Below the pieces are notes generated by a model. That model ran no database searches, was not told the DNA's origin, and saw only the letters and a program-made list of their open reading frames with translations. From contig JAFGHJ010000023.1 in assembly GCA_016930175.1 (NCBI GenBank), positions 17,053 through 81,052 on the forward strand: a DNA stretch of 64,000 nucleotides, read 5' to 3'. Positions 9,479 through 49,746 of the stretch are shown here, piece by piece. The position numbers and the translations under genes are program-made. The first letter of the stretch is position 1; each line of letters begins with the position of its first letter. The DNA comes from a candidate division WOR-3 bacterium. Lineage in GTDB: Bacteria > Hydrothermota > UBA3072.

Positions 9479-9762
9479 TCACACGGAGACACGGAGAACG
9501 CGGAGATTTTTTTGTTGTTTTCCCCACCCAACCCCAAAAAATACTATCTCACACAAAGCCACTTTGCAGGATTATTTTTAGGTATTAAAAACATTCATCT
9601 ATTTGTGTTATTTGTTGTTTCTCTCGTGGGGGTGTGGGAGGGAAAAACAAATTTAATTTTCTTTCTTTGTGTTCTTTGTGGCTTTGTGTGAGATAAATGG
9701 GGTGGAGTGGGGTTTTTAAGCAACATATTTTTTCTTTGTGTCTTTGTGCTCTTTGCGTGAGA
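9479..9762. repeat. Nested inverted-repeat element made of nonamer modules and C/G tracts
   Basis: Perfect 18-bp IR at 9545-9562/9678-9695; CCCCACCCAACCCC versus GGGGTGGAGTGGGG; outer CACGGAGA repeats versus CTTTGTG repeats. Confidence 0.85.
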
Positions 9763-19021: not shown

Positions 19022-21770
19022 GATCAAGAAAGCGTCTGTTCACAACTTAAAAGGAATAGACGTCGATATACCGCGTGACGAGTTGGTGATTATAACCGGC
19101 ATTTCCGGGTCGGGCAAATCTTCTCTGGCGTTTGATACAATATACGCGGAAGGACAGAGAAGATATGTCGAATCGCTGTCGGCTTACGCCAGACAGTTCT
19201 TAGGTGTTATGGATAAGCCGGAGGTTCAATCTATAACAAACCTGTCCCCCACAATTTCAATAGAACAGAGAAAACTTTCTCGTAACCCTCGTTCAACCGT
19301 GGGTACGGTAACCGAAATATACGATTATCTTCGTGTTCTTTTCGCGAGAACCGGAACCGCAGAGTGTTACAATTGCGGAAAGGAAATATCTTCTCAGACC
19401 GTGGATGAAATTGTTGCTCAAATTTTATCATACCCTAAAGATTCGCATCTATACATACTTGCTCCTATTGCCAGAGGGAAAAAGGGTACATTTTCGGCAG
19501 AGTTGCGTAGAATTGAGGAAAAAGGATATGTAAGAGTGATAATAGACGGCGAAATTTTTGATATTGAGAGCGTTCCCGAACTCGATAAAAACAAACCGCA
19601 TAATATCGAAATAGTCGTAGATAGAATAATGCCAAAAAAAGAAATAAGAAGCAGAATTGCAGATTCCGTTGAAACCGCTCTTTCAGAAACCGAAGGTATA
19701 TTAATATTGAGGGATATCGATAAAGACGAGAACAGAATATTCTCCACGCAATTTGCATGTCCCGACTGCGGAATAAGTTATCCTGAAATTTCTCCGAGGC
19801 TATTTTCTTTTAATTCTCCCTACGGAGCCTGTCCGAAGTGTCAGGGCATAGGAACCGAGATGGAAATAGACCCGGAGAATATAATCCTTAACGAATCTTT
19901 ATCGATTCTTGAAGGGGCAATAGCGCCAGTAGGAGAACCCGGAGGGAGATTCCTGCGCGAATTAAATGATGTTGCATTTAAATATAATTTGGACTTAAAC
20001 AACCCCTGGGAAGATATAAATGAAAAAGATAGAAATATAATTTTATACGGTGCTGATTACTGGGAGGGAGTGATACCCTATCTGAACAGAAGACACCGCA
20101 GTACCGAATCCGATTGGATAAGAAGCGAGATAGAAAAATATATGATCTTTGCACCCTGCACCGAATGTGGCGGCTCTCGCCTGCGAAAGGAAGCTCTGTC
20201 CATAAAAATAAATAATAAAAACATACATGATGTCGCTAAGATGAACATTACTCAAGCAAGAAAATTCACGGAAAATATAAAATTCAATGATGAAAGGCAG
20301 AAAATTGCTAATGAATTAATAAGAGAGATCCTTCACCGTCTTCGTTTCTTGGAAGACGTAGGCGTAGATTACCTGACTCTGGAAAGGTCGACTCAAACAC
20401 TTGCCGGAGGAGAAGCGCAGAGAGTACATCTCGCGACTCAAATCGGCTCCGGTCTGGTTGGAATTATTTATATCCTCGACGAGCCGACTATTGGTCTGCA
20501 TGAAAGAGACATACTGAGGCTGATCAAAACTTTGAAATCTCTTAGAGATATCGGAAATACTGTAATATTGGTAGAACATGATTTCAAAAGTATCTTATCC
20601 GCGGATTGGGTAATAGACCTTGGTCCAGGCGCAGGTGCGAAAGGAGGAAAAGTCGTATTTACAGGTACCCCGGGGGATTTGAAGAAAAACGGTAAAACTA
20701 TAACAGGCAAATATCTCTCCGGAAAAGAAAAAATTCCTGTACCTGATAAGCGAAATAAAAAGAAAAAAGATAAAACCATCAAAATTCTGGGTGCTGAAGG
20801 CAACAATCTTAAAAAGCTGGACGTCGAAATACCTCTGAACTGCTTTGTTTGTATAACGGGTGTTTCGGGTTCAGGGAAAAGTACCCTGCTTATCGATATT
20901 TTATACCGGGCGCTCGCGAGAACCTTCCACGGTTCAAGATATCTTCCTCTTCCTCACGAAAAAATAGAAGGAGTGGAAAATATCGATAAAGTAATAAACA
21001 TCGACCAGAGTCCCATAGGCAGAACCCCCCGTTCAAATCCTGCGACGTATACAGGGGCATTTGATCCGATAAGAGACTTTTACGCCGAACTCCCCGCGTC
21101 GAGGGTCAGGGGCTACGACAAGGGAAGATTCTCATTCAATGTAGAGGGAGGAAGATGTGAAGAATGCAGCGGTCAGGGGCAGAAGAAAATAGAAATGCAT
21201 TTCCTGTCCGATGTTTACGTTACCTGTAAAGCCTGCAAGGGAAAAAGGTATAAAAAAGAAACTCTGGAAGTAGAATATAAAGAGAAAAATATAGCGGATG
21301 TTCTCGATTTAACGGTATCGGAAGCTCTTTCCTTTTTTTTCGATATTCCAAATGCGAGGCAAAAGTTAAAACTCCTGCAGGATGTGGGTTTAGGATATAT
21401 AAAACTCGGTCAGCCCGCGACCACTCTTTCGGGTGGGGAAGCCCAGAGAATAAAACTGGCAAAAGAACTTTCCAAAGTCGCAACAGGTGATACTCTTTAT
21501 CTTCTCGACGAACCGACAACCGGTTTGCACGCTCATGATATTCGTTTGTTGTTAAAAATACTGAGGCGGCTCGTTGATATGGGCAACACGGTCGTTGTTA
21601 TCGAACATAATCTTGACGTAATAAAATGCGCGGACTGGATTATAGACCTCGGACCCGAAGGAGGAGCAGAAGGCGGAGAACTTATCGGCGAGGGTACTCC
21701 TGAAGAAATCGCGGAAATAAAAAAATCCTATACGGGGAAATTTCTGAAAGAAATCCTGGAGAAAAATTAA
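19005..21770 (+). CDS. uvrA: Excinuclease ABC subunit A
   Basis: Two ABC ATPase modules (GISGSGKSS, GVSGSGKST), EGQRRYVESLS and zinc fingers. Confidence 0.98.
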   Translation: MKKNIEIKKASVHNLKGIDVDIPRDELVIITGISGSGKSSLAFDTIYAEGQRRYVESLSAYARQFLGVMDKPEVQSITNLSPTISIEQRKLSRNPRSTVGTVTEIYDYLRVLFARTGTAECYNCGKEISSQTVDEIVAQILSYPKDSHLYILAPIARGKKGTFSAELRRIEEKGYVRVIIDGEIFDIESVPELDKNKPHNIEIVVDRIMPKKEIRSRIADSVETALSETEGILILRDIDKDENRIFSTQFACPDCGISYPEISPRLFSFNSPYGACPKCQGIGTEMEIDPENIILNESLSILEGAIAPVGEPGGRFLRELNDVAFKYNLDLNNPWEDINEKDRNIILYGADYWEGVIPYLNRRHRSTESDWIRSEIEKYMIFAPCTECGGSRLRKEALSIKINNKNIHDVAKMNITQARKFTENIKFNDERQKIANELIREILHRLRFLEDVGVDYLTLERSTQTLAGGEAQRVHLATQIGSGLVGIIYILDEPTIGLHERDILRLIKTLKSLRDIGNTVILVEHDFKSILSADWVIDLGPGAGAKGGKVVFTGTPGDLKKNGKTITGKYLSGKEKIPVPDKRNKKKKDKTIKILGAEGNNLKKLDVEIPLNCFVCITGVSGSGKSTLLIDILYRALARTFHGSRYLPLPHEKIEGVENIDKVINIDQSPIGRTPRSNPATYTGAFDPIRDFYAELPASRVRGYDKGRFSFNVEGGRCEECSGQGQKKIEMHFLSDVYVTCKACKGKRYKKETLEVEYKEKNIADVLDLTVSEALSFFFDIPNARQKLKLLQDVGLGYIKLGQPATTLSGGEAQRIKLAKELSKVATGDTLYLLDEPTTGLHAHDIRLLLKILRRLVDMGNTVVVIEHNLDVIKCADWIIDLGPEGGAEGGELIGEGTPEEIAEIKKSYTGKFLKEILEKN

Positions 21771-21963
21771 CCACAAAGGCACAAAGAACACAAAGCCCCA
21801 CTCCCAACTAAATTTTGTATTTATTTAACCACAGAGTGCACAGAGAAAACAACTGTTTGTTTAAAACCCAACCCTTCCCAAAAACAAGTAACAACAAATT
21901 ACACAAATGACACGAATGGTTTAATTTTTCTACTAAATCCCAATCCCTAAATCCTGAATCCCA
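21769..21963. repeat. Intergenic repeat-module array (all arms in one orientation)
   Basis: AACCACAAAGGCACAAAGAACACAAAG + CCCCACTCCC; AACCACAGAGTGCACAGAG; AACAACAAATTACACAAATGACACGAAT; AATCCCAATCCCTAAATCCTGAATCCCAA. Confidence 0.8.
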
Positions 21964-27753: not shown

Positions 27754-27950
27754 GTGCCACCCCAAGCCACCCTATTTTGAACCACAGAGAGCACAGAGAA
27801 AAAAGAACTCACAGAGAGCACAGAGAAAAATGTATATTTTGTTGTTTAAAAGCTCCCAACCCAAGCAAAAAGATTATTGAACCACAAAGATGACACAGTT
27901 TTATTTTTTTAAGTCAAAAGCAAAAGGCAAACAGCTAATAGCTTGGGAGT
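27754..27950. repeat. Intergenic repeat-module array between divergent promoters
   Basis: C-tract, AACCACAGAGAGCACAGAGAAAAAAGAACTCACAGAGAGCACAGAGAA, TTGTTGTTTAAAA, C-tract, AACCACAAAG, then heptamers CAAAAGG-CAAACAG-CTAATAG. Confidence 0.85.
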
Positions 27951-27970: not shown

Positions 27971-27999
27971 TTGACATATAAAATCAAATTTATTATAAT
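27971..27999 (+). promoter_or_regulatory. Promoter of CBM9 gene 1 (near-identical to the lpoB operon promoter)
   Basis: TTGACA-17 nt-TATAAT. Confidence 0.75.
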
Positions 28000-34189: not shown

Positions 34190-34404
34190 TCCACCCCCGA
34201 CCCCTATAATAGGACACAGATGAACGCAGATTTAAAAGATTTCTTTTTCTGTTTTCCAATTCAACCATTTAACGATTCAACTATTCAACTCAGATTCGGA
34301 GAATTTACATTTTGCTTTTTAATTTTTTATATTTTATTACAAGGAAAACTAAAGTCCAAAAGGTGTTTGATTTTAAGTCGTTGCTGAGCGGTTGATAGGT
34401 TGAA
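34190..34404. repeat. Intergenic repeat-module array
   Basis: C-tract, GGACACAGATGAACGCAGATTTAAAAGATT, octamers ATTCAACC-ATTTAACG-ATTCAACT-ATTCAACT and a partial inverse GGTTGATAGGTTGAA. Confidence 0.75.
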
Positions 34405-35778: not shown

Positions 35779-35887
35779 AATTATGAATTATAAATTTTGA
35801 ATTTTGAATTAAGACGATAAATTCTCTGTGCTCTCTGTGAGTTCTTTTCTCTGTTCTCTGTGGTTAATTGGGGAGGAGGGGTGGGGT
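35779..35887. repeat. Intergenic repeat-module array upstream of the GGDEF promoter
   Basis: Heptamers AATTATG-AATTATA-AATTTTG-AATTTTG; a reverse-complement near-copy of the module at 27780-27827; G-tract GGGGAGGAGGGGTGGGG. Confidence 0.85.
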
Positions 35888-37234: not shown

Positions 37235-37248
37235 ATACCAAAAAATTA

Positions 37249-37475
37249 ATCTCAAACAAAGCCACAAAGAACGCAAAGAAAGGATTTAGAAGTTGGAAGT
37301 TATGAGTTAGGATAAAACAGCAAATAAAAGATCCTATTAAATCTGCGTTTATCTGTATCTTAACTTTGGGGTTTGGGATTTTGGATTTAGTTAAAATAAC
37401 AAAAAATTTCTGTGCTCTCTATGAGTCTGTATTTCTCTGTGTTCTCTGTGGTAAAAATATGGTGAGGTAGTGGGG
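37249..37475. repeat. Intergenic repeat-module array upstream of tRNA-Leu
   Basis: ATCTCAAACAAAGCCACAAAGAACGCAAAG, ATCTGCGTTTATCTGT, GGGGTTTGGGATTTTGGA, TTCTGTGCTCTCTATGAG..TCTCTGTGTTCTCTGTGGT, then a G-tract. Confidence 0.8.
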
Positions 37476-37478
37476 CTC

Positions 37479-37506
37479 TTGACACTTACAAATGATTAAC
37501 TATATT
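37479..37506 (+). promoter_or_regulatory. Promoter of tRNA-Leu
   Basis: TTGACA-16 nt-TATATT. Confidence 0.7.
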
Positions 37507-38741
37507 TTGACAAAATCAGCGGAAGTGGCGGAACTGGTAGACGCGCTGGGTTCAGGGTCCAGTGGTGAATAGCCGTGGGGGTTCGAATCCCCCCTTCCGC
37601 AGGTATTTTGAATGTTTTTATCGTAAAAAAGATTAAAATCGGATAGGCAACACTTTAGTAGCTTTCCATTTCTTATAACCGCTACCGGACAGTATTTGCA
37701 ATTTACAAGATGCCCATCTTCGCCGATAAAAGGTCCGTTGTCGTAGACAATCATTTTGTGTAACAATTTCCTTTTTGGTTTCAAGGCAGGCAGTATAAAC
37801 TGAACGAATTTATGAAGGCGGAAAGTTGAAATGCTATTGAGAAAAATCCTTAGTAAAGTTATCGCAGTATTCTGTTTTGTTTTTTGTATATAATGACCTG
37901 ATATAATACGTGCAATTTTCATCAGCAATAAATCCGTGTAATTTGATTTTATTTTAAATAAAGAATATTTATTATCATGATAAACAACAGGTATGAAATA
38001 ATTTATAGCTACAAAATCTTTTCCGTTGGTTGCAGGAAAAAAGGCATATGGTTCGATATTATAGTTTTTCTTGTAAAAATCTATAATTTCGTATATTTTA
38101 TCTTTTTCGCTATCATAATATGGTTTATTTCTTTCGTTTTTTTGTATTCTAATGACTTTTGAAGATAGCTGTTTTAGATCCTGGCCTTTAGATAGAAAAA
38201 GGAATGTTATCTCCGGAGATTCGAAAAAGAATTGATTGTATTTTGCTAGGGTTTCTTTATCTTCATTGTTTAGAGTCATGGAAACAGATACATCGATACC
38301 GTATGAGTAGGCCATTATCGTTAATTCTTTAAGTCGCATCTTAACGTCTTCGAATTTTGGTTTTTCCGGTAGATCGGGTCTTTTCTGCCAAGGGTCAACG
38401 TGAAACATAATGTAATCCAGATTGGACTTTTTTAATTTTCTTAAATAGGTATTGTTTATAAGAACCCCGTTTGTAAGTAAAAAAGCATTTAAACCATATT
38501 CCTTAATGATTTCTACGATTTTGCATAGTTCCGGATGTAGAGTTGGTTCTCCGCCTGAGATAGATACAGTATGTAAATTACGTTTTTTCATTGCTGTTTC
38601 GATATCTTTCCGTATCTGAGCCAGGCTCTTCATATTTTTAGCTTTTTTCTTATAACAAACCCTGCATTCGATATTGCAGGCGTCCGTAACTTCCAGCATA
38701 ACTCCTGGGGAAGTTATGTTATCCCATGGCATTTTTATCAT
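37500..38741 (-). CDS. Radical SAM protein (C-terminal tail runs antisense through tRNA-Leu)
   Basis: CNIECRVC motif, SGGEPTLHP and LTNG; additional CKYC..CC near the C-terminus. Confidence 0.85.
   Translation of the reverse strand: MIKMPWDNITSPGVMLEVTDACNIECRVCYKKKAKNMKSLAQIRKDIETAMKKRNLHTVSISGGEPTLHPELCKIVEIIKEYGLNAFLLTNGVLINNTYLRKLKKSNLDYIMFHVDPWQKRPDLPEKPKFEDVKMRLKELTIMAYSYGIDVSVSMTLNNEDKETLAKYNQFFFESPEITFLFLSKGQDLKQLSSKVIRIQKNERNKPYYDSEKDKIYEIIDFYKKNYNIEPYAFFPATNGKDFVAINYFIPVVYHDNKYSLFKIKSNYTDLLLMKIARIISGHYIQKTKQNTAITLLRIFLNSISTFRLHKFVQFILPALKPKRKLLHKMIVYDNGPFIGEDGHLVNCKYCPVAVIRNGKLLKCCLSDFNLFYDKNIQNTCGRGDSNPHGYSPLDPEPSASTSSATSADFVKI
37519..37601 (+). tRNA. tRNA-Leu (anticodon CAG); CCA not encoded
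   Basis: Acceptor stem GCGGAAG/CTTCCGC, D-loop GGAACTGGTAGAC, anticodon loop TTCAGGG, long variable arm, GGGGG-TTCGAAT-CCCCC T-arm. Confidence 0.96.
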
Positions 38742-40339
38742 TTGTTTAAACCCCTGGTTAAAGCATCATTTATTCCTATTTTATTGTAAAATATAAATGG
38801 TTTTATTACACCGAGTTTTCTCCCCTCGTTTATTAAAAAATTCATGTAAATCTCTCGCGGGTTTTCTATATGATTTATTAAAACCACTTTTGGTTTGCTC
38901 AGTTGCCCTAAGTTCCGAGCGTAGTTATAATGAAAATTTTTTCTCAGATTATTTTCGAGAATTTCTTCAAGTCCTTTAATTTTCTCAGATTTAATTTTAC
39001 CCTTGATATATAGGATATAATTAAAATTCTTGTTATCGCAGGGTGCGAAGAGTAGAAATTCCGGTCTTATTTTGAGTTTATTTAGAGCGTTTTTGACTGT
39101 CTTTCTTACGAAAAATTCGTTCAACTTTTCTCCAAAATAATCTGAAATCAGGTCTTGTTTTCCGCAGAATTTAATTAATGGAGTGTTTTTGATTTTTCCT
39201 ATGGCTTCAACCACGTCGTTAAGTCTATATCGGTATAGCCCTCCTGAAGTTGTCATTACTACTGAATAATGCTTACCCCTTTTTATATTTCCCAGCGTCA
39301 AAATCTCTCCATTGGCTAAATCTATAAATTCATAGAAATGCGACCTGACAGCCAGTACGGAGCCGGGAAAACCTGTAAAAGGAATAGATACTATACCTTC
39401 TGTTGCAAGCAATCCTTTACCCTGTATTTCTACTCCGGGAAAATTTTCCCTTATCTCAGTTATAAACATTTCCGAGGGACCATCTGCCCAGCAACTTATA
39501 AGGTTCAGTTTTTCCCATATTTTGGAAAAATCTATTTTGTTTTTATCTTTTGCTTCTTTGAGTTCCTTAACGCGTGAAGGGGATGGAGTTAGGATTAAAG
39601 GAAAATCGGTGCCTTCTTCGATTTCTTTTAAAATTTTATCCCAAAAAAGTTTTACTTTTTCTATAAGTATTAATAAAAACGTTGGACTCCAGACTGAAAT
39701 CAGTGTTAAATTTTTCTCTCGTAAGAGATATAGGGCAGTTAAATACAGAAATTCTTCTATGTTATCTATCTTACCAAGTTTTGAAGGTACAGCCATAGTT
39801 TTTTCCAATAGTCTTCCAATTATTCCAAAATATTCGGTATCTTCTTTAAACCCAATAGGAATTTTGCTTCCGTCTTTTTCGGGAATATTTCCGGGAGGCG
39901 TAATCGCCCAATAAGCTTTTCCATTCAGAAGGTTAGGTCTGTTAAGGTAAAGATTAGCCAGCCATGGATAAATACCTTTTTTATATTCTTTTTCCAGTCC
40001 TTTTGTATATGGTATTAATTTGGAACCTGAAGAGGAACCGCCTGTCGGTTCGAGAAGATTTATTTTTTCTTCTGTGAGTACTTTCTGCTCCCCGTTCATT
40101 GCTTTTCTTATATACTTAGTATAATCTTCATAATCGCTGAGAGGTACTTCTTTCCGAAAATTTTTAATAGACTTGATGCTTCTGAAATTATATTTTTTTC
40201 CGAATTCAGTATCTTCGTTTTTGGTTATAATATTGGAAAGAATTTTTTTCTGATGATTTTCAGGACAATTAAGCGCTCTAAGAAATCTCGAATATTCAGG
40301 TAAAAGATAAATTAACGAAAGAGAATTTATTGCTAACAT
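38738..40339 (-). CDS. GH3-family acyl-adenylate/amido synthetase
   Basis: NEDTEFGKKYNF, VPLSDYEDY, EPTGGSSSGSKLIPYT P-loop, GLLATEG, HFYEF, TSGGLYRYRLND and GEKL motifs. Confidence 0.88.
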   Translation of the reverse strand: MLAINSLSLIYLLPEYSRFLRALNCPENHQKKILSNIITKNEDTEFGKKYNFRSIKSIKNFRKEVPLSDYEDYTKYIRKAMNGEQKVLTEEKINLLEPTGGSSSGSKLIPYTKGLEKEYKKGIYPWLANLYLNRPNLLNGKAYWAITPPGNIPEKDGSKIPIGFKEDTEYFGIIGRLLEKTMAVPSKLGKIDNIEEFLYLTALYLLREKNLTLISVWSPTFLLILIEKVKLFWDKILKEIEEGTDFPLILTPSPSRVKELKEAKDKNKIDFSKIWEKLNLISCWADGPSEMFITEIRENFPGVEIQGKGLLATEGIVSIPFTGFPGSVLAVRSHFYEFIDLANGEILTLGNIKRGKHYSVVMTTSGGLYRYRLNDVVEAIGKIKNTPLIKFCGKQDLISDYFGEKLNEFFVRKTVKNALNKLKIRPEFLLFAPCDNKNFNYILYIKGKIKSEKIKGLEEILENNLRKNFHYNYARNLGQLSKPKVVLINHIENPREIYMNFLINEGRKLGVIKPFIFYNKIGINDALTRGLNK

Positions 40340-41040
40340 CCTGTTATTCGGTAAAAAATAGGTTTGAAATTCTCTTTTTTAATTTCAGTTATGCAAGCGA
40401 GTTCATCGCCTTTCGTATATCCTGGATTGCTTCTTAGAAAATATTTAATGTGAGGATTGGTAAGTCTGTTCAAAGGAATAGTTGCATGTTTTACTTTTAA
40501 AAAATTTTTGTTCCGAGGGATAATTACACCTTTTTCCTTATTATAAGCTTTCCCGAACTTTTCATACGCTAATACATCTATTATTTTTTTCTCAAAAACG
40601 GGCGTTTCTCTATCATACCTTGGATAATAATCTTCAAATATCAATGGAAGAAATCTGTATGTTCTAAAACCCATTGATATAAGAAACCAGTAGAATTTTA
40701 CCCCTTTTTCCATATTATTGTATATATATCTCCCAAAATGCTTCATTAAATCTAATTCATTTCTGTAAGAACTGTCTACTATTGTATCACCGGAAAAAAC
40801 AGCTTTAATTTTTGTACCATCGACTGTAACTCTCATCGTTTTTAAAGTAGAAAATCCTTTTATTTTTTTTGTACCATTCGCAAAAAGAAGGATAATTTTT
40901 TCTTTTTCGTTAAGATCACTGAAGAAGGTTTTTTCTTCTACAACAAAGTATCTGGTAAATAGAGAGTACATCTGTTTTTTGTAATCTCCGGAAAGCTCTT
41001 TTATATCTATAATCCTGCCGGTTATTTTTTTATCTTTCAT
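40333..41040 (-). CDS. Hypothetical protein, probable GNAT/acyltransferase-like fold
   Basis: IKGFST..AVFSGDTIVDSSYR, YWFLISMGFRTYRFLP and NPGY..GDEL. The fold assignment is an inference. Confidence 0.55.
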   Translation of the reverse strand: MKDKKITGRIIDIKELSGDYKKQMYSLFTRYFVVEEKTFFSDLNEKEKIILLFANGTKKIKGFSTLKTMRVTVDGTKIKAVFSGDTIVDSSYRNELDLMKHFGRYIYNNMEKGVKFYWFLISMGFRTYRFLPLIFEDYYPRYDRETPVFEKKIIDVLAYEKFGKAYNKEKGVIIPRNKNFLKVKHATIPLNRLTNPHIKYFLRSNPGYTKGDELACITEIKKENFKPIFYRITGC

Positions 41041-42185
41041 AAGGTTGCGACCTCCATATAAGGAGTTCTATTGTCCAGGTTGTTATAAAATTCTTCCCCG
41101 TCTTCCCAGTGTACTAAGAATATTCTGCTTCTCAGTTTAAAAGCCGGATATTTAAGCATAATCGAATTTAAGGAATCTTCGGAGTGGAGTCCGACAATCA
41201 TATATTTATATCCTCTTTTTTTACCTTCTTCTCTCAATTTTTCGAGTAAAGCTCCGAAAACATGAGGATTGTTGTTTTTAGCGGCAATCGATGAAGCAAA
41301 GAAATAGTTCAAAGTTGTTTCTTCCGGAGGTAAAAGGGGCATATCCTTCAAGAAGGCATTCAGGTTCCATAAAGGTCTCATGATTTTCATTGATGTGCTG
41401 TATCCCGAAACAACATCCTGCTTGAAAGAAGTCTGATCCCACATCCCTATGGTTCCTATTATTTCGTCTCCTTTTAATGCTACAAAAATATCCTCTACAT
41501 TTAAATTTCTTAGAATTCCTCGATCATTCAAGAAATCTTCTGCTTTATATACGGGGTAGAACTGTTTTTTCCTGGCTTCTTTATCAATAAAGGATATGAT
41601 CTTTTCGAGTATGTCTTTATCGGCTTTTTTTATCTTTATATCCGGATAATTTACTCTTCTTTTTTTGAGCCCTATCGCGTAGGATGTATAAGCGCCGTAG
41701 TCTTTATAGGGAGGTAGGGGTCCTCTGCCGGAGGTCAGAATTTTAATAGCGAGATGATTGTCTTCGAGAATACTGGTGAGATAGAGTTTTGCTTTACTAT
41801 CACTGTGAAGTTCCTTGAAAAATTTGTAGGCTCTTCCGATAAGTATTCCGCCTCTGTAATTCTTATCGAGTCGTAAGTTACTCAAGTATCCAACATTAGT
41901 TTTTGAACCGTTGACGAACATCTCTCTTATTGACCTGATACCAAAACCTATGATTTTATTTTTCTTAAGATCCCGACCTAAAGCGACCTGGACTTTTTTC
42001 CCTTCTATATCGAGGCTTTCAAAGAAATCGGGTTCTCTCTGGAAGGAAATTTTGAGTTTACCTTCCATATAATTGTCTCTAAGGAGTCTTCTTAAAGATT
42101 CCTCATCGTTCCTGTTCGCCATTTCTATAATAAATCTCTTTGGCGTTTGTAGCTTCTTACTTTTATTTAGCGTTTTCATAATCAT
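41037..42185 (-). CDS. GNAT-like acyltransferase (probably tandem fold)
   Basis: IIGFG..VGYLSNLRLDKNYRGG resembles acetyl-CoA-binding motif A; a second IIGTIGMWDQ strand follows. Confidence 0.6.
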   Translation of the reverse strand: MIMKTLNKSKKLQTPKRFIIEMANRNDEESLRRLLRDNYMEGKLKISFQREPDFFESLDIEGKKVQVALGRDLKKNKIIGFGIRSIREMFVNGSKTNVGYLSNLRLDKNYRGGILIGRAYKFFKELHSDSKAKLYLTSILEDNHLAIKILTSGRGPLPPYKDYGAYTSYAIGLKKRRVNYPDIKIKKADKDILEKIISFIDKEARKKQFYPVYKAEDFLNDRGILRNLNVEDIFVALKGDEIIGTIGMWDQTSFKQDVVSGYSTSMKIMRPLWNLNAFLKDMPLLPPEETTLNYFFASSIAAKNNNPHVFGALLEKLREEGKKRGYKYMIVGLHSEDSLNSIMLKYPAFKLRSRIFLVHWEDGEEFYNNLDNRTPYMEVATL

Positions 42186-43506
42186 CTAAACCTTCTCCTA
42201 ATGGTATTCTCATTTTTTTGTTGACTTCTTTTTCGGCTAAGAGATTTTGTATTAGATATATGAGAGCGATAACAGGAGATTGAAGGTTTCCTCTGAAGTT
42301 AGAAGCTCTTTTAAGAATGGAGGGCAGAGAATAGAATCGTTTTCTAGATTGTTCGCAAATTTTCGCCAACTCTTCAGGTTCATGGTGGTAAGGTTTAAAC
42401 GCGTAATCACCGTATCTGTAGTTGTCAGAAAGCCACCATTTTTTCTTTAGTAATCTACCTTCTTCTTCTAATCTTTTGTAAGCGCTGGTTCCGGGGAAGG
42501 GAAGTAAGTGATTGAAAGCGGCAAGTAGGAATTTGCTTTTTTCCGCAAATTTAAAGGTTCTTTCTATCGTTTCTGTGGTATCGTTTTCGTACCCGACTAA
42601 AAAGGTCGCGTAGATACCAATTCCGTGTTTATATATCTTTTTTATTAAATCTTCATATTTTCCAATATTCTGGTTCCAGGATTTATTCATTTTTTCAAGG
42701 TTTTGCTTATTGATCGATTCGAAACCGATTAACACTCCTACGCAGCCGCTTTTTTTCATAATCGTAAGCAATTTTTCGTCGAGAGCGATTTGAAGAGATG
42801 CCTGTCCGACCCATTTAATTTTAAGGGGAGTGATTGCTTTAAATAGTTGTTTAGCTCTTTTAGTATCAGCTACTAAATTGTCGTCGATAAAAAAGAACCT
42901 CTTTCCCTTAATGTTCTGTATCTCTTTTGTTATATCTTCAATGGGTCTAGTTTTATATGTGCTTGAATAAAACTCGGAAATCGAACAAAATTCACAAGAA
43001 AAAGGACATCCTCTCGCCGATTCGATAAGGTTGAGTTTTACGTAATTTTTCCCTGCGAAAACACTTCTGTCAGGGAAAAAACCCGCAAAAGAAGTAAGTG
43101 GCTCTTTATAATACTTCTTGAGTTTTTTTGATTTTGTGTCTTCAAGTATCTGGTTCCATACATTTTCAGCTTCACCTATAACCACTGCGTCAGCATATTC
43201 ACCTGCCTCCTCCGGGAGAAGAGTCGGATGGTATCCTCCCACTACCACAGGTATTCCTCTCTTTCTGAATTGTGAGGATATGTAGTATGCTCTCCGGGCT
43301 GTATATGTTTCTACCGTAATACCTACAAGATCACAATCTTCATCATAGGGTATTTGTTCGAGCCTGTCATCATAAAAAGCTATTTCGACATCATCGGGTG
43401 TTAAAGACGCGAGTTGAGCAATTATCAGGGGTTCCATTTGCCAGGTTCGCACGTAAGAGGTGTTTTTCTTTTTACCCATTCCGGGCATAATTAATATTAT
43501 TTTCAT
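42163..43506 (-). CDS. B12-binding domain radical SAM protein
   Basis: DLVGIT, VVVGGYHPT, VIGEAE, ARGCPFSCEFC, FFIDDN and GFES motifs. Start MKIILIMPG at 43506 (ATGA overlap); the ORF track gives 43563. Confidence 0.92.
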   Translation of the reverse strand: MKIILIMPGMGKKKNTSYVRTWQMEPLIIAQLASLTPDDVEIAFYDDRLEQIPYDEDCDLVGITVETYTARRAYYISSQFRKRGIPVVVGGYHPTLLPEEAGEYADAVVIGEAENVWNQILEDTKSKKLKKYYKEPLTSFAGFFPDRSVFAGKNYVKLNLIESARGCPFSCEFCSISEFYSSTYKTRPIEDITKEIQNIKGKRFFFIDDNLVADTKRAKQLFKAITPLKIKWVGQASLQIALDEKLLTIMKKSGCVGVLIGFESINKQNLEKMNKSWNQNIGKYEDLIKKIYKHGIGIYATFLVGYENDTTETIERTFKFAEKSKFLLAAFNHLLPFPGTSAYKRLEEEGRLLKKKWWLSDNYRYGDYAFKPYHHEPEELAKICEQSRKRFYSLPSILKRASNFRGNLQSPVIALIYLIQNLLAEKEVNKKMRIPLGEGLDDYENAK

Positions 43507-44900
43507 TTTGACTCCAGGTTTATCTCGGAGATTATTTCCTTGGTGCATTTTGGCAGTTTCCAAGCGTAGTACTTATATCCCAAATTTAGTAATAAACCCA
43601 GCCAGTAAAGAGATCTTGTCCCGTTTAACCTGCCTAATACCGATTTGAGCTTGTATGTTTCTCTCCATGCCCAGTGCAGTCCTTCTTCGAGTTCTTCCGG
43701 TTTCATATTTTTCGGTTTATATACCACGTGCTCGACATCGTACATAGACCAGTCGTATTCTATTATCCTTTTTTCTTCTTCAAGTTTTTTGAATATAGGT
43801 GTGCCCGGATAGGGAGTAAAAACAGAATATCTCGGCAGGTCGATTTTTATCTTATCTATAAATTCTACAGTTCTTTCAAAAACGCCTTTGTCTTCGTGGT
43901 CTGTTCCGAAAAGGAAAGTTCCGTTAACCCGTATCCCATTGTCGTGGAGATTCCTTAAAAGATCCGAATACTTAGTTACTATTTTTGGATTCTTATGAAT
44001 TTCTTTTAGACTGTCGGGAGAAATCGTTTCAAATCCAATTAAAAGTCCTTTGCAGCCGCTTTCTGCAACTGCGTCAAGGATTTCTTTGTCGAACAGCGCG
44101 TTTGCGGTCGAAAGACCGAACCAGCTTTTTTTAAGCGGTTTTAAACCTTCCAAGAGTTCTTTCGAATATTCTTTATCTCCGAGTAGATGAACGTCAATGA
44201 ATACTACTTCGTTGCCGTCGAGGGTTTTTATTTCTTCGAGTATTTTTGATACGGGACGTTTAAAGTAATTCTTTCTCCACACATTAGGGACAGCGCAAAA
44301 ACTACAATTGCAGGGACATCCTCTTGTAGCCATCATTGAATTCAGAGTTATATAAGAATTCTTTTTTAATAAATCTCTTTTTGGTATAGGAATATTTTCG
44401 GTCGGGAAATTTCCCGGGTCTTCATAGATTCTTTTCATTTTATTTTGAGAAAAATCTCGAAGCAGTTCCGGAAAAACTCTTTCAGCAAAGCCGACAACGA
44501 CGCTGTCGGCATGGCTGAGAGCTTCCTCGGGCATAAGCGTCGGATGTACACCTCCGAGAACTACGGGAATCCCTTTTTGTCTATAATTATCGGCAATCGC
44601 GTAGGCTCTCGTAGAAGTTGCGGTCATAGCGCTGATCCCAACCAGGTCGGGATCAAAATTTAGTGAGCTTAAATTATCGGTTCCTTCGTCCAATATCTTA
44701 AGGTTAATATTAAGGTCTTTGGGTATTAGAGAAGCAAGATAGGTCAGAGTTAACGGGGCATACCTCAAGGACTTTTTAAATATGCCGGTCTTGGCTCTGT
44801 GTATTGCGCCCGCGGGCAGAATCAAAAGGAGGTTAAAACAATTGTTAGTAATTCGGGATTTTCGTTTTAACGAATCAATTTTATTCCTATACATTTTCAC
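43503..44900 (-). CDS. B12-binding domain radical SAM protein
   Basis: DLVGIS, VVLGGVHPT, TRGCPCNCSFC, GFET and TPYPGT motifs; AGGAGG RBS before GTG. Confidence 0.92.
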   Translation of the reverse strand: MKMYRNKIDSLKRKSRITNNCFNLLLILPAGAIHRAKTGIFKKSLRYAPLTLTYLASLIPKDLNINLKILDEGTDNLSSLNFDPDLVGISAMTATSTRAYAIADNYRQKGIPVVLGGVHPTLMPEEALSHADSVVVGFAERVFPELLRDFSQNKMKRIYEDPGNFPTENIPIPKRDLLKKNSYITLNSMMATRGCPCNCSFCAVPNVWRKNYFKRPVSKILEEIKTLDGNEVVFIDVHLLGDKEYSKELLEGLKPLKKSWFGLSTANALFDKEILDAVAESGCKGLLIGFETISPDSLKEIHKNPKIVTKYSDLLRNLHDNGIRVNGTFLFGTDHEDKGVFERTVEFIDKIKIDLPRYSVFTPYPGTPIFKKLEEEKRIIEYDWSMYDVEHVVYKPKNMKPEELEEGLHWAWRETYKLKSVLGRLNGTRSLYWLGLLLNLGYKYYAWKLPKCTKEIISEINLESK

Positions 44901-44976
44901 CGCCTCCTTAATACTTTAATTTTGTCAATCCACGGTTGTCTTTTAATATTATTCAGAGTACTTTGCTATACAAAGT

Positions 44977-45004
44977 ATTATAATCATTTTTTTTATTTTG
45001 TCAA
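44977..45004 (-). promoter_or_regulatory. Promoter of the radical SAM/GH3 operon
   Basis: Minus strand TTGACA-16 nt-TATAAT. Confidence 0.7.
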
Positions 45005-45121
45005 GGGGTTTTTTGAAATTCAGGTGTGAGGGTTCGTGTATGAACTTGAAATTAAAGGATTTTGATTGTTGGTGATTGGGTCGTAAAATATGAGAGTATA
45101 CGCCCGCGACGTTTAAGGAAA

Positions 45122-45148
45122 AAAGTGGGGCTATCATAGCCCCACTTT
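45122..45148 (-). terminator. Intrinsic terminator downstream of the cyclophilin gene
   Basis: AAAGTGGGGCTAT-C-ATAGCCCCACTTT palindrome; the upstream A-run gives a U-tail on the minus strand. Confidence 0.75.
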
Positions 45149-49717: not shown

Positions 49718-49746
49718 ATTATAAACAATTTGATTTTATATGTCAA
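49718..49746 (-). promoter_or_regulatory. Promoter of the lpoB operon (near-identical to the CBM9 gene 1 promoter)
   Basis: Minus strand TTGACA-17 nt-TATAAT. Confidence 0.75.

Follow-up and report, generated by a model that had tools for sequence, protein, structure and literature searches.

A widespread, uncharacterized GNAT–GH3–radical SAM cassette beside a tRNA-Leu gene in a candidate division WOR-3 bacterium

We describe a six-gene operon in a stretch of 64,000 nucleotides (here, the window, whose coordinates are used throughout) from contig JAFGHJ010000023.1 of a candidate division WOR-3 bacterium (Hydrothermota; assembly GCA_016930175.1). The six genes form a real, self-contained operon of biosynthetic-type enzymes, which is best explained as having been gained by lateral transfer, as one copy of a biosynthetic cassette that is widespread yet uncharacterized. 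The recurrent core of this cassette consists of a small GNAT-fold protein, a GH3 acyl-acid amido synthetase homolog, and a protein with two GNAT domains, to which two B12-binding radical S-adenosylmethionine (SAM) enzymes are the commonest added module. As to what it makes, we lean, at somewhat less than even confidence, toward an N-acylated, radical-SAM-tailored amino-acid conjugate that is synthesized at the expense of ATP and would probably be amphiphilic (lipoamino-acid-like) and either membrane-bound or exported. The cassette is genuine and well conserved and falls within GH3-dependent amide biosynthesis; it is not demonstrably a new kind of system.

The operon and its genomic setting

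The six open reading frames (ORFs) span 37500–44900 on the minus strand and lie, in the order of transcription, at 43503–44900, 42163–43563, 41037–42185, 40333–41040, 38738–40339, and 37500–38741. They encode B12-binding radical SAM proteins 1 and 2, the tandem-GNAT protein, the small GNAT, the GH3 protein, and a third radical SAM protein. A first-pass annotation, made from the letters and the ORFs alone, had proposed six co-oriented, overlapping genes behind one consensus promoter, and this is borne out by the ORF list and by a perfect TTGACA-16 nt-TATAAT promoter at 44977–45004 (minus strand), which lies upstream of the operon, directly past the terminator hairpin of the cyclophilin gene; such perfect promoters number five in the window versus 0.06 expected from shuffled sequences. 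An AAGGAGG Shine-Dalgarno sequence stands ahead of the GTG start of the first gene at 44900. The last four genes overlap by 4 nt (tandem GNAT and small GNAT), 7 nt (small GNAT and GH3), and 4 nt (GH3 and third radical SAM), which indicates translational coupling. The gene ends, on the other hand, needed revision in two places: the start of the tandem-GNAT gene most likely lies 21 codons further downstream, at 42122, and the final 41 codons of the last ORF are antisense to a tRNA-Leu gene. The remark that no precursor peptide is visible still holds, in that the coding strand has no ORF of 20 aa or more from the promoter up to gene 1. An Rfam scan returned two tRNAs only and no riboswitch, and two metatranscriptome contig sets gave coverage over the tRNA and the cyclophilin flank only.

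The operon and its promoter are contained in an accessory insert of 7517 bp (37602–45118), delimited by homology breakpoints against a genome of the same genus. The insert starts right at the 3' end of a plus-strand tRNA-Leu(CAG) gene (37519–37601; called by both ARAGORN and Rfam), and core-genome synteny restarts on its far side at a terminator-like hairpin of the upstream cyclophilin gene (45122–45148, minus strand). The same-genus genome shares the flanks, i.e., a GGDEF gene and the tRNA-Leu gene on one side and the cyclophilin gene onward on the other, and its synteny with the window stops at 37601. In that genome, the gap between the tRNA-Leu and cyclophilin genes is filled by an unrelated cargo of 5.8 kb (genome G014, locus L090, 1753–7537) coding for a MarR-like helix-turn-helix protein, a WG-repeat protein of 366 aa, and four proteins that Pfam does not match. 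The presence of different cargo at the same gap in a sister genome marks this site as a hotspot for variable genes.

A search for the tandem-GNAT gene in relatives of the host genome (2.34 Mb in 48 contigs, 94% complete) gave no match in 14 genomes of the same genus or 19 of the same family, and detected it in just two of the 21 more distant relatives searched. The earlier impression that this DNA is more AT-rich than its flanks is also correct, the G+C content of the insert being 35.5% versus 40.4% elsewhere, which makes it the lowest-GC stretch of 7.5 kb in the window. Thus, the traits of a genomic island that can be seen here are an adjoining tRNA 3' end, a deviant GC content, and absence from close relatives. 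There is no integrase among the six operon genes and no att-like direct repeat, the tRNA 3' end not being repeated at the far border of the insert.

Of the sequencing runs, one DNA run, probably that of the source sample, was listed as containing this sequence, and no RNA run. A single DNA contig from this probable source sample links position 37271 directly to 45164 and so bypasses the insert. The shorter side of this joint has only 22 letters at 90% likeness, which is too weak for an empty-site variant and may be a repeat artifact.

The cassette in other genomes

A word-indexed protein search retrieved 25 relatives of the tandem GNAT. A pattern built from an alignment of 10 sequences (the profile of all 25 being too divergent) was then scanned against one genome per GTDB species and recovered at least 149 loci. 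The counts below rest on the best 80 of these 149 loci, with 5,279 ORFs in all; the full-flank set comprises the 49 loci with at least 5 kb on both sides of the tandem-GNAT gene. Families were counted by searching the six window proteins against the locus ORFs and by clustering ORFs of 70 aa or more. The carriers include Planctomycetota, Chloroflexota, Acidobacteriota, Verrucomicrobiota, Pseudomonadota, Myxococcota, Nitrospirota, Bacteroidota, Elusimicrobia, Kaiserbacteria, and Tayloriibacteriota, among others; nearly all are metagenome-assembled genomes, with one cultured organism, Massilia glaciei B448-2.

The small GNAT is encoded in 68 of the 80 loci and 46 of the 49 full-flank loci, the GH3 protein in 65 and 46, respectively (both together in 45 of the full-flank set), and a B12 radical SAM protein in 50 and 32. 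The gene order is also mostly preserved: a B12 radical SAM gene lies directly upstream of the tandem-GNAT gene in 35 of the 65 loci where the greedy gene map kept the latter, and in 34 of 48 cases the gene right after the small GNAT is GH3. The first-pass annotation had let its case depend on the co-occurrence of these genes in other genomes, and the core partners indeed accompany the tandem GNAT in most full-flank loci. Its description of the combination as an orphan needs qualification: the operon is uncharacterized, reaches no curated family cut-off, matches no known pathway in the libraries searched, and is the subject of no paper that we found, but it is not unique, being a member of a widespread cassette. 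Likewise, the six-gene operon is real, but the conserved unit comprises five genes or fewer, with the third radical SAM gene joining it only occasionally.

Around this unit, related loci carry an assortment of accessory genes. They code for a Rieske oxygenase (29 of 80 loci; it scores highest on the NCBIfam model of the 4beta-methylsterol monooxygenase SdmA, at 110.7 bits against a cut-off of 600), membrane proteins of the fatty-acid-desaturase family (25), PAP2 membrane phosphatases (25), SnoaL-like proteins (20), a membrane protein of about 900 aa with RnfD-like, FG-GAP, and ASPIC regions (17), AurF-like diiron proteins (8), and cytochromes P450 (7). As partners of the core, B12 radical SAM genes never share a full-flank locus with the RnfD-like/FG-GAP gene: of the 49 loci, 32 carry the first but not the second, 12 the second but not the first, and five neither. 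A simple swap between aerobic and anaerobic tailoring was considered and rejected, as O2-dependent oxygenases occur alongside B12 radical SAM genes in seven of the 49 full-flank loci. Reduced or divergent versions also exist: three Chloroflexi loci (L060, L068, and L077) retain only radical SAM protein 2 and the tandem GNAT, beside a gene of the Trp/Tyr-permease family, and a further locus (L075) has a pyridoxal phosphate (PLP)-dependent decarboxylase and a transporter of the MFS family.

A tblastn search of a plasmid collection yielded three records, one from Citrobacter portucalensis and two of 4 Mb from Acinetobacter baumannii. The mobilizable IncF plasmid of C. portucalensis (NZ_CP134684, 51417–63512; L171) bears an 11-gene version with five B12-type radical SAM genes. 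It runs from the small GNAT and GH3 through a pair of radical SAM genes, the tandem GNAT, and a second such pair to PAP2; the fifth radical SAM gene lies on the opposite strand, as does a gene for a fatty acid desaturase. At the level of megablast, this version was not found in 5,426 Escherichia coli genomes or in other PLSDB plasmids. In the A. baumannii record examined (NZ_CP104448, 1749–10317; L172), there is a distant core trio without radical SAM genes, just downstream of a DDE transposase of insertion-sequence type, in which genes for HlyD, MFS, small GNAT, GH3, an outer-membrane efflux protein (OEP), tandem GNAT, and SurE follow one another in the same direction. This pump-interleaved gene order indicates an exported product in that variant. 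Hence, the observation that no exporter accompanies the genes stands for the operon of the window and fails for the A. baumannii variant, which sits inside an MFS/HlyD/OEP pump operon.

The acyltransferase and ligase core

The tandem-GNAT protein (41037–42122, minus strand, from its likely start; the ORF reaches 42185) would have 361 aa, and this start is preferred because the database counterpart has the same length. Pfam gives it only a weak Acetyltransf_1 match (21.4 bits), and a profile of its family against solved structures returned nothing below an E-value of 0.18, while ESM Atlas searches gave only clusters labeled 'hypothetical' or GNAT. The predicted structure, with a mean predicted local distance difference test score (pLDDT) of 93.4, has a two-GNAT-domain fold. 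Among solved structures, its best matches are MAB_4324 (Z 21.8), the yeast N-myristoyltransferase (Z 21.7 over 299 residues, with model residues 1–361 aligned to chain residues 83–455 and the last residue aligned), and glucosamine N-acetyltransferases (20.2–21.6), followed by MshD (17.7) and a histidine acetyltransferase (16.4). The Fem-type transferases FemX (13.7) and FemA (12.7) score well below the 20–22 of the acyl-coenzyme A (CoA)-dependent tandem GNATs, and the Foldseek ranking agrees with that by Z-score. The likeness to N-myristoyltransferase, MAB_4324, GlmA, Eis, and MshD thus lies in the two-GNAT-domain fold, with Z of 20–22 for the best, whereas sequence identity to these acyltransferases is 11–15%, and the window gene is set apart from theirs by its tight linkage to a B12 radical SAM gene.

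A second likeness, to N-myristoyltransferase in particular, may exist at the C-terminus. The family ends in the motif E-x3-L, i.e., an invariant Glu with the chain ending four residues on, usually in Leu; this holds in all 25 database homologs and in 68 of 81 ORFs. In N-myristoyltransferase, the C-terminal carboxylate is the catalytic base. The Z-score of N-myristoyltransferase is tied with those of other tandem GNATs; judging from the model, the protein appears no less similar to that enzyme than to any other tandem GNAT, down to the fixed C-terminus. This C-terminal resemblance provides a lead to the N-acylation of an amine with acyl-CoA.

The small GNAT (235 aa; 40333–41040, minus strand) belongs to an unnamed family and has a weak Acetyltransf_9 match (22.9 bits); the family profile matches no solved structure at E ≤ 1. 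Structure prediction (pLDDT 96.2) gives it one GNAT fold, which carries an insertion. Thus, the first-pass assignment of two GNAT-like proteins, for which Pfam gives only weak matches, was confirmed for both by structure prediction and fold searches, Foldseek included. The matches of the small GNAT are to NatD (Z 12.4), LasI (11.6), AAC(2') (11.5), and FeeM (10.9). The N-acyl amino acid and N-acyl homoserine lactone synthases FeeM, LasI, RpaI, and TofI align with it over nearly its full length at Z 10.3–11.6, but these scores are tied with those of NatD and AAC(2'), and there is no match at the sequence level. In a library clustered at 50% identity, a profile of the small GNAT retrieved 2515 representatives at E ≤ 0.001, of which 913 reach E ≤ 1e-30. 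Among the 150 matches listed, three (726–788 aa) are natural fusions, in which the GNAT part is followed by the GH3 N and M domains; from such fusions, it can be inferred that the two proteins work as a unit.

The GH3 protein (533 aa; 38738–40339, minus strand) has the N, M, and C domains of the family, matching PF03321 at 162 bits, PF23571 at 65.2, and PF23572 at 22.7, just below the cut-off of 23.6. Its nucleotide-binding motifs are SSSGSK at residue 103 and YRYRLND, corresponding to the Ser/Thr-rich P-loop and YRxGD-type motif of GH3 enzymes, and G101, R370, Y371, and D375 are invariant in 38 GH3 sequences from the cassette. It matches plant GH3 structures (JAR1, GH3.5/6/12/15) with E-values down to 4e-18 and shares their three-domain architecture, whereas the similarity is low and patchy, and the window protein is encoded in a bacterial operon. 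The pairing of GH3 with a GNAT-fold protein, as coupled genes or in the natural fusions, is not known to us from plants. Bacterial relatives are plentiful, with 2600 at E ≤ 1e-10 in one search.

The sole functional study of a bacterial GH3 that we found concerns OlsH of Singulisphaera acidiphila, which forms N-acyl-ornithine from free fatty acid, ATP, and ornithine; its authors call the roles of other bacterial GH3 homologs unknown (PMC12493201). The window shares with the OlsH/OlsI ornithine-lipid pathway a bacterial GH3-family enzyme in an operon and, presumably, ATP-dependent amide chemistry (PMC12493201). The two systems differ in that neither an OlsI-type alpha/beta hydrolase nor an OlsG methylase domain occurs in the six proteins or the scanned flanking genes, and in that the window GH3 is partnered by two GNAT-fold proteins and B12 radical SAM enzymes. 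The GH3 of the window scores 58.1 bits against the OlsH model NF052613, whose cut-off is 620, and no GH3 reaching that cut-off was found in five planctomycete genomes that bear the cassette.

The radical SAM enzymes

B12-binding radical SAM protein 1 (465 aa, GTG start; 43503–44900, minus strand) and protein 2 (at most 466 aa, its start codon being uncertain; 42163–43563, minus strand) have the layout of class B cobalamin radical SAM enzymes, a B12-binding domain (PF02310; 53.4 and 41.7 bits, respectively) followed by a radical SAM core (PF04055; 67.2 and 60.5 bits) with CxxxCxxC at residues 195 and 186. This motif had been reported as intact in all three radical SAM proteins of the operon, and each does have one. 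The 80 loci hold 130 B12 radical SAM ORFs, and a tree was built from 120 of them, leaving out 10 shorter than 380 aa. Protein 1 falls in a clade of 40 sequences from 38 loci (support 0.998) and protein 2 in one of 70 sequences from 45 loci (support 0.72), so that each has a cassette-specific orthologous clade of its own.

The closest solved relatives of both are AprD4 and 9ccb (for protein 1, with E of about 1e-11). The NCBIfam name of the matching family is methyl-coenzyme M reductase (MCR) glutamine C-methyltransferase, and 9ccb is labeled QCMT in a 2026 review (PMC12931638). QCMT, AprD4, TsrM, PhpK, HpnJ, and BchE share with the two proteins an N-terminal B12-binding domain and a CxxxCxxC radical SAM core, and such class B enzymes provide their best partial matches; the window proteins differ in scoring 3- to 10-fold below the curated cut-offs and in their separate, cassette-specific clades. 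The best named equivalog is HpnJ, at 102.9 bits versus a cut-off of 577.6, with BchE, PhpK, HpnR, ladderane, QCMT, and AprD4 relatively lower. The host genome has six ORFs with a B12-binding domain, two of them in the operon, and no cobQ above cut-off was found in this 94%-complete genome, suggesting that the organism may depend on scavenged cobalamin. An ORF in locus L066 (7209 onward) scores 432 and 589 bits against the two B12 radical SAM proteins and may be their fusion.

The third radical SAM protein (413-aa ORF; 37500–38741, minus strand) combines Radical_SAM and Fer4_12 domains. Its residues 1–372 match a family of about 370 aa with three plus four conserved cysteines, and its residues 373–413, the 41 codons noted above, are antisense tRNA-Leu read-through, there being no stop at the usual end of the family, which gives it a GDSNPH-type tail of the kind that translated tRNA typically yields. 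As all seven conserved cysteines are upstream of this tRNA-derived tail, the enzyme may still work. Of the solved structures, it best matches 7tol, a tetraether lipid synthase, with E 1e-10 and over the radical SAM core at residues 15–129 only, and it scores 52.5 bits against the Tes model, with its cut-off of 450. In addition to this match, its likeness to Tes/GDGT-MAS includes the Tes-type PF23545 domain in more distant database relatives, whereas the window protein is only about 370 aa long and has its own C-terminal four-Cys motif. It is an occasional accessory of the cassette, found in three of the 80 loci (as a fragment in L001 and at full length in L066 and L072) and, by profile search, in four of 45 cassette-bearing genomes. 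A metagenome scan with this family picked up generic motifs and was uninformative, a single one of the 80 loci kept having a full-length homolog, at 28% identity. One homolog elsewhere (G075:C73:15662–16783) contains a single in-frame TGA.

What the cassette might make

The activities of these families can be combined into a scheme in which the GH3 enzyme would use ATP to activate a carboxylic acid for coupling to an amine, with an amino acid as the likeliest partner, for which plant GH3 enzymes and OlsH offer precedents; the small GNAT would act directly with it; and the tandem GNAT would move an acyl group from acyl-CoA onto an amino group. The two B12 radical SAM enzymes, joined here by the third, would then modify unactivated carbons without oxygen, methylation being the default guess. 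The resulting conjugate is taken to be an amphiphile because of the lipid-type accessory genes in relatives, the pump linkage, and the OlsH precedent. Specifically, the genes for desaturase-family, PAP2, SdmA-like Rieske, and P450 proteins in related loci and the match of the third radical SAM protein to 7tol hint at a lipid or amphiphile, and the Trp/Tyr-permease-family neighbor in the three Chloroflexi loci hints at an amino-acid substrate.

Several observations weigh against such a conjugate. Each functional step in the scheme is drawn from chemistry at the level of the family. The lipid-type accessory genes of relatives are absent from the window, the Pfam scan found no carrier protein, fatty-acid gene, or exporter in its operon, and no transmembrane helices are predicted in any of the six proteins. 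Cassettes in Kaiserbacteria and Tayloriibacteriota reside in genomes of about 0.7 Mb, which is awkward for de novo lipid synthesis. On the enzymatic side, the canonical pyrophosphate-binding loop for acyl-CoA is Q/R-x-x-G-x-G/A, and a by-eye reading of the alignments showed no well-conserved loop of this kind in either GNAT; the fold matches of the small GNAT look generic in the model comparisons, with no more than about 1.5 Z between NatD, LasI, and FeeM. The two B12 radical SAM proteins lie far under every curated cut-off, and class B radical SAM enzymes also catalyze reactions other than methylation.

Some of these same observations would fit a small water-soluble metabolite, which we regard as the foremost alternative and yet as rather unlikely. 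It would follow the same enzyme logic with short acyl groups, to yield, e.g., an N-acetylated, C-methylated amino acid or a dipeptide-like conjugate that serves as a signal, compatible solute, or antimetabolite. The predicted solubility of all six proteins and the cassettes of the 0.7 Mb genomes are in line with this, as are the Trp/Tyr-permease-family transporter in L060, L068, and L077 and the PLP decarboxylase and MFS transporter in L075. Moreover, many of the top matches of the tandem GNAT, namely, the glucosamine N-acetyltransferases, MshD, and the histidine acetyltransferase, use acetyl-CoA on small amines. What speaks for a longer chain is that related loci often have membrane desaturase-family, PAP2, and sterol-oxidase-like Rieske genes, that the fixed C-terminus resembles that of N-myristoyltransferase, and that the only characterized bacterial GH3 acts on fatty acids (PMC12493201).

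The modification of a peptide or protein, by N-terminal acylation, C-methylation, and amino-acid ligation, acting on a precursor as in peptides that are made by ribosomes and modified after translation (RiPPs) or on a host protein encoded elsewhere, seems improbable to us. It would account for the Z of 21.7 between the tandem GNAT and N-myristoyltransferase, for the N-terminal acetyltransferase NatD as the top match of the small GNAT (Z 12.4), and for the MCR glutamine C-methyltransferase 9ccb ranking, with AprD4, in the top two solved relatives for either B12 radical SAM protein. The fold matches, however, can be put down to generic GNAT similarity, and no precursor-sized ORF lies behind the promoter or between the overlapping genes, although a precursor might be encoded elsewhere. 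In addition, Pfam detects no protease, leader-recognition domain, or peptide exporter, the clustering of the 80 loci (of ORFs of 70 aa or more) revealed no short conserved family, and the accessory genes of relatives are for oxygenases of small molecules or lipids.

More doubtful still is a role in conjugation and detoxification, by which the GH3 protein, together with the GNATs, would render an incoming carboxylic acid or amine inactive and the conjugate would then be pumped out. Plant GH3 enzymes do inactivate hormones, and AAC-type GNATs inactivate aminoglycosides. The HlyD-MFS-OEP efflux operon around the A. baumannii variant, the AAC(2') enzymes in the Foldseek list of the small GNAT, and the position of the insert at a variable tRNA hotspot would be consistent with such a role; against it, the B12 radical SAM genes, of which a locus has two to seven, and the Rieske, P450, desaturase, and AurF-like genes look like biosynthetic tailoring, the operon of the window has no pump, and PADLOC reports nothing specific. 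For known anti-phage defense systems, PADLOC gave no specific match, its matches being to the generic radical SAM core only (pVip at 70 bits over residues 15–118; PDC-M51A at 23–29 bits).

Returning to the N-acylated, radical-SAM-tailored conjugate, a broader proposal can be made, which we consider possible but hold more loosely than that reading of the product itself. According to it, a hitherto undescribed class of acyl-amino-acid natural products or membrane lipids would extend across bacterial phyla, including the candidate phyla radiation, an enterobacterial plasmid, and A. baumannii, with a GNAT/GH3 ligase, as two proteins or as one fusion, and an N-myristoyltransferase-like acyltransferase building the scaffold and either cobalamin radical SAM enzymes or the RnfD-like/FG-GAP protein tailoring it.

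Relation to published work and significance

Our searches found no published description of the cassette; subscription journals were thinly covered, and a description may thus exist elsewhere. In the accessible text of a review of radical SAM enzymes in lipid modification, the terms 'GNAT', 'N-acyl', and 'acetyltransferase' do not appear (PMC13459092), and 'GNAT', 'radical SAM', and 'Rieske' are likewise missing from that of a review of acyloxyacyl amino lipids (PMC12971839), whose GH3 passages concern OlsH only (PMC12971839).

Through the cassette, two unnamed GNAT families and dedicated cobalamin radical SAM enzymes are linked with a large clade of GH3 proteins; because of these ties, a single solved product would annotate thousands of genes. 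Experimental access is afforded by the cultured Massilia glaciei, the C. portucalensis plasmid, and the pump-linked A. baumannii variant, and the six-gene version of the window is itself compact and comes with its own promoter. Should the product be a membrane lipid or an exported amphiphile, it would bear on the adaptation of the cell envelope in the absence of oxygen and on new radical SAM chemistry.

Other features of the window

The intergenic region ahead of the tRNA-Leu gene (37235–37518) is made up of short dispersed repeats, with five partial copies in the window (9661–9698, 21762–21795, 27768–27824, 34210–34255, and 35794–35867) and dozens of matches of 40–100 nt in four of the five same-genus genomes searched, the fifth having few. 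Two of the five perfect promoters, at 27971–27999 (plus strand) and 49718–49746 (minus strand), are near-identical over 29 nt (TTGACATATAAAATCAAATT..TTATAAT), which suggests a repeated promoter module.

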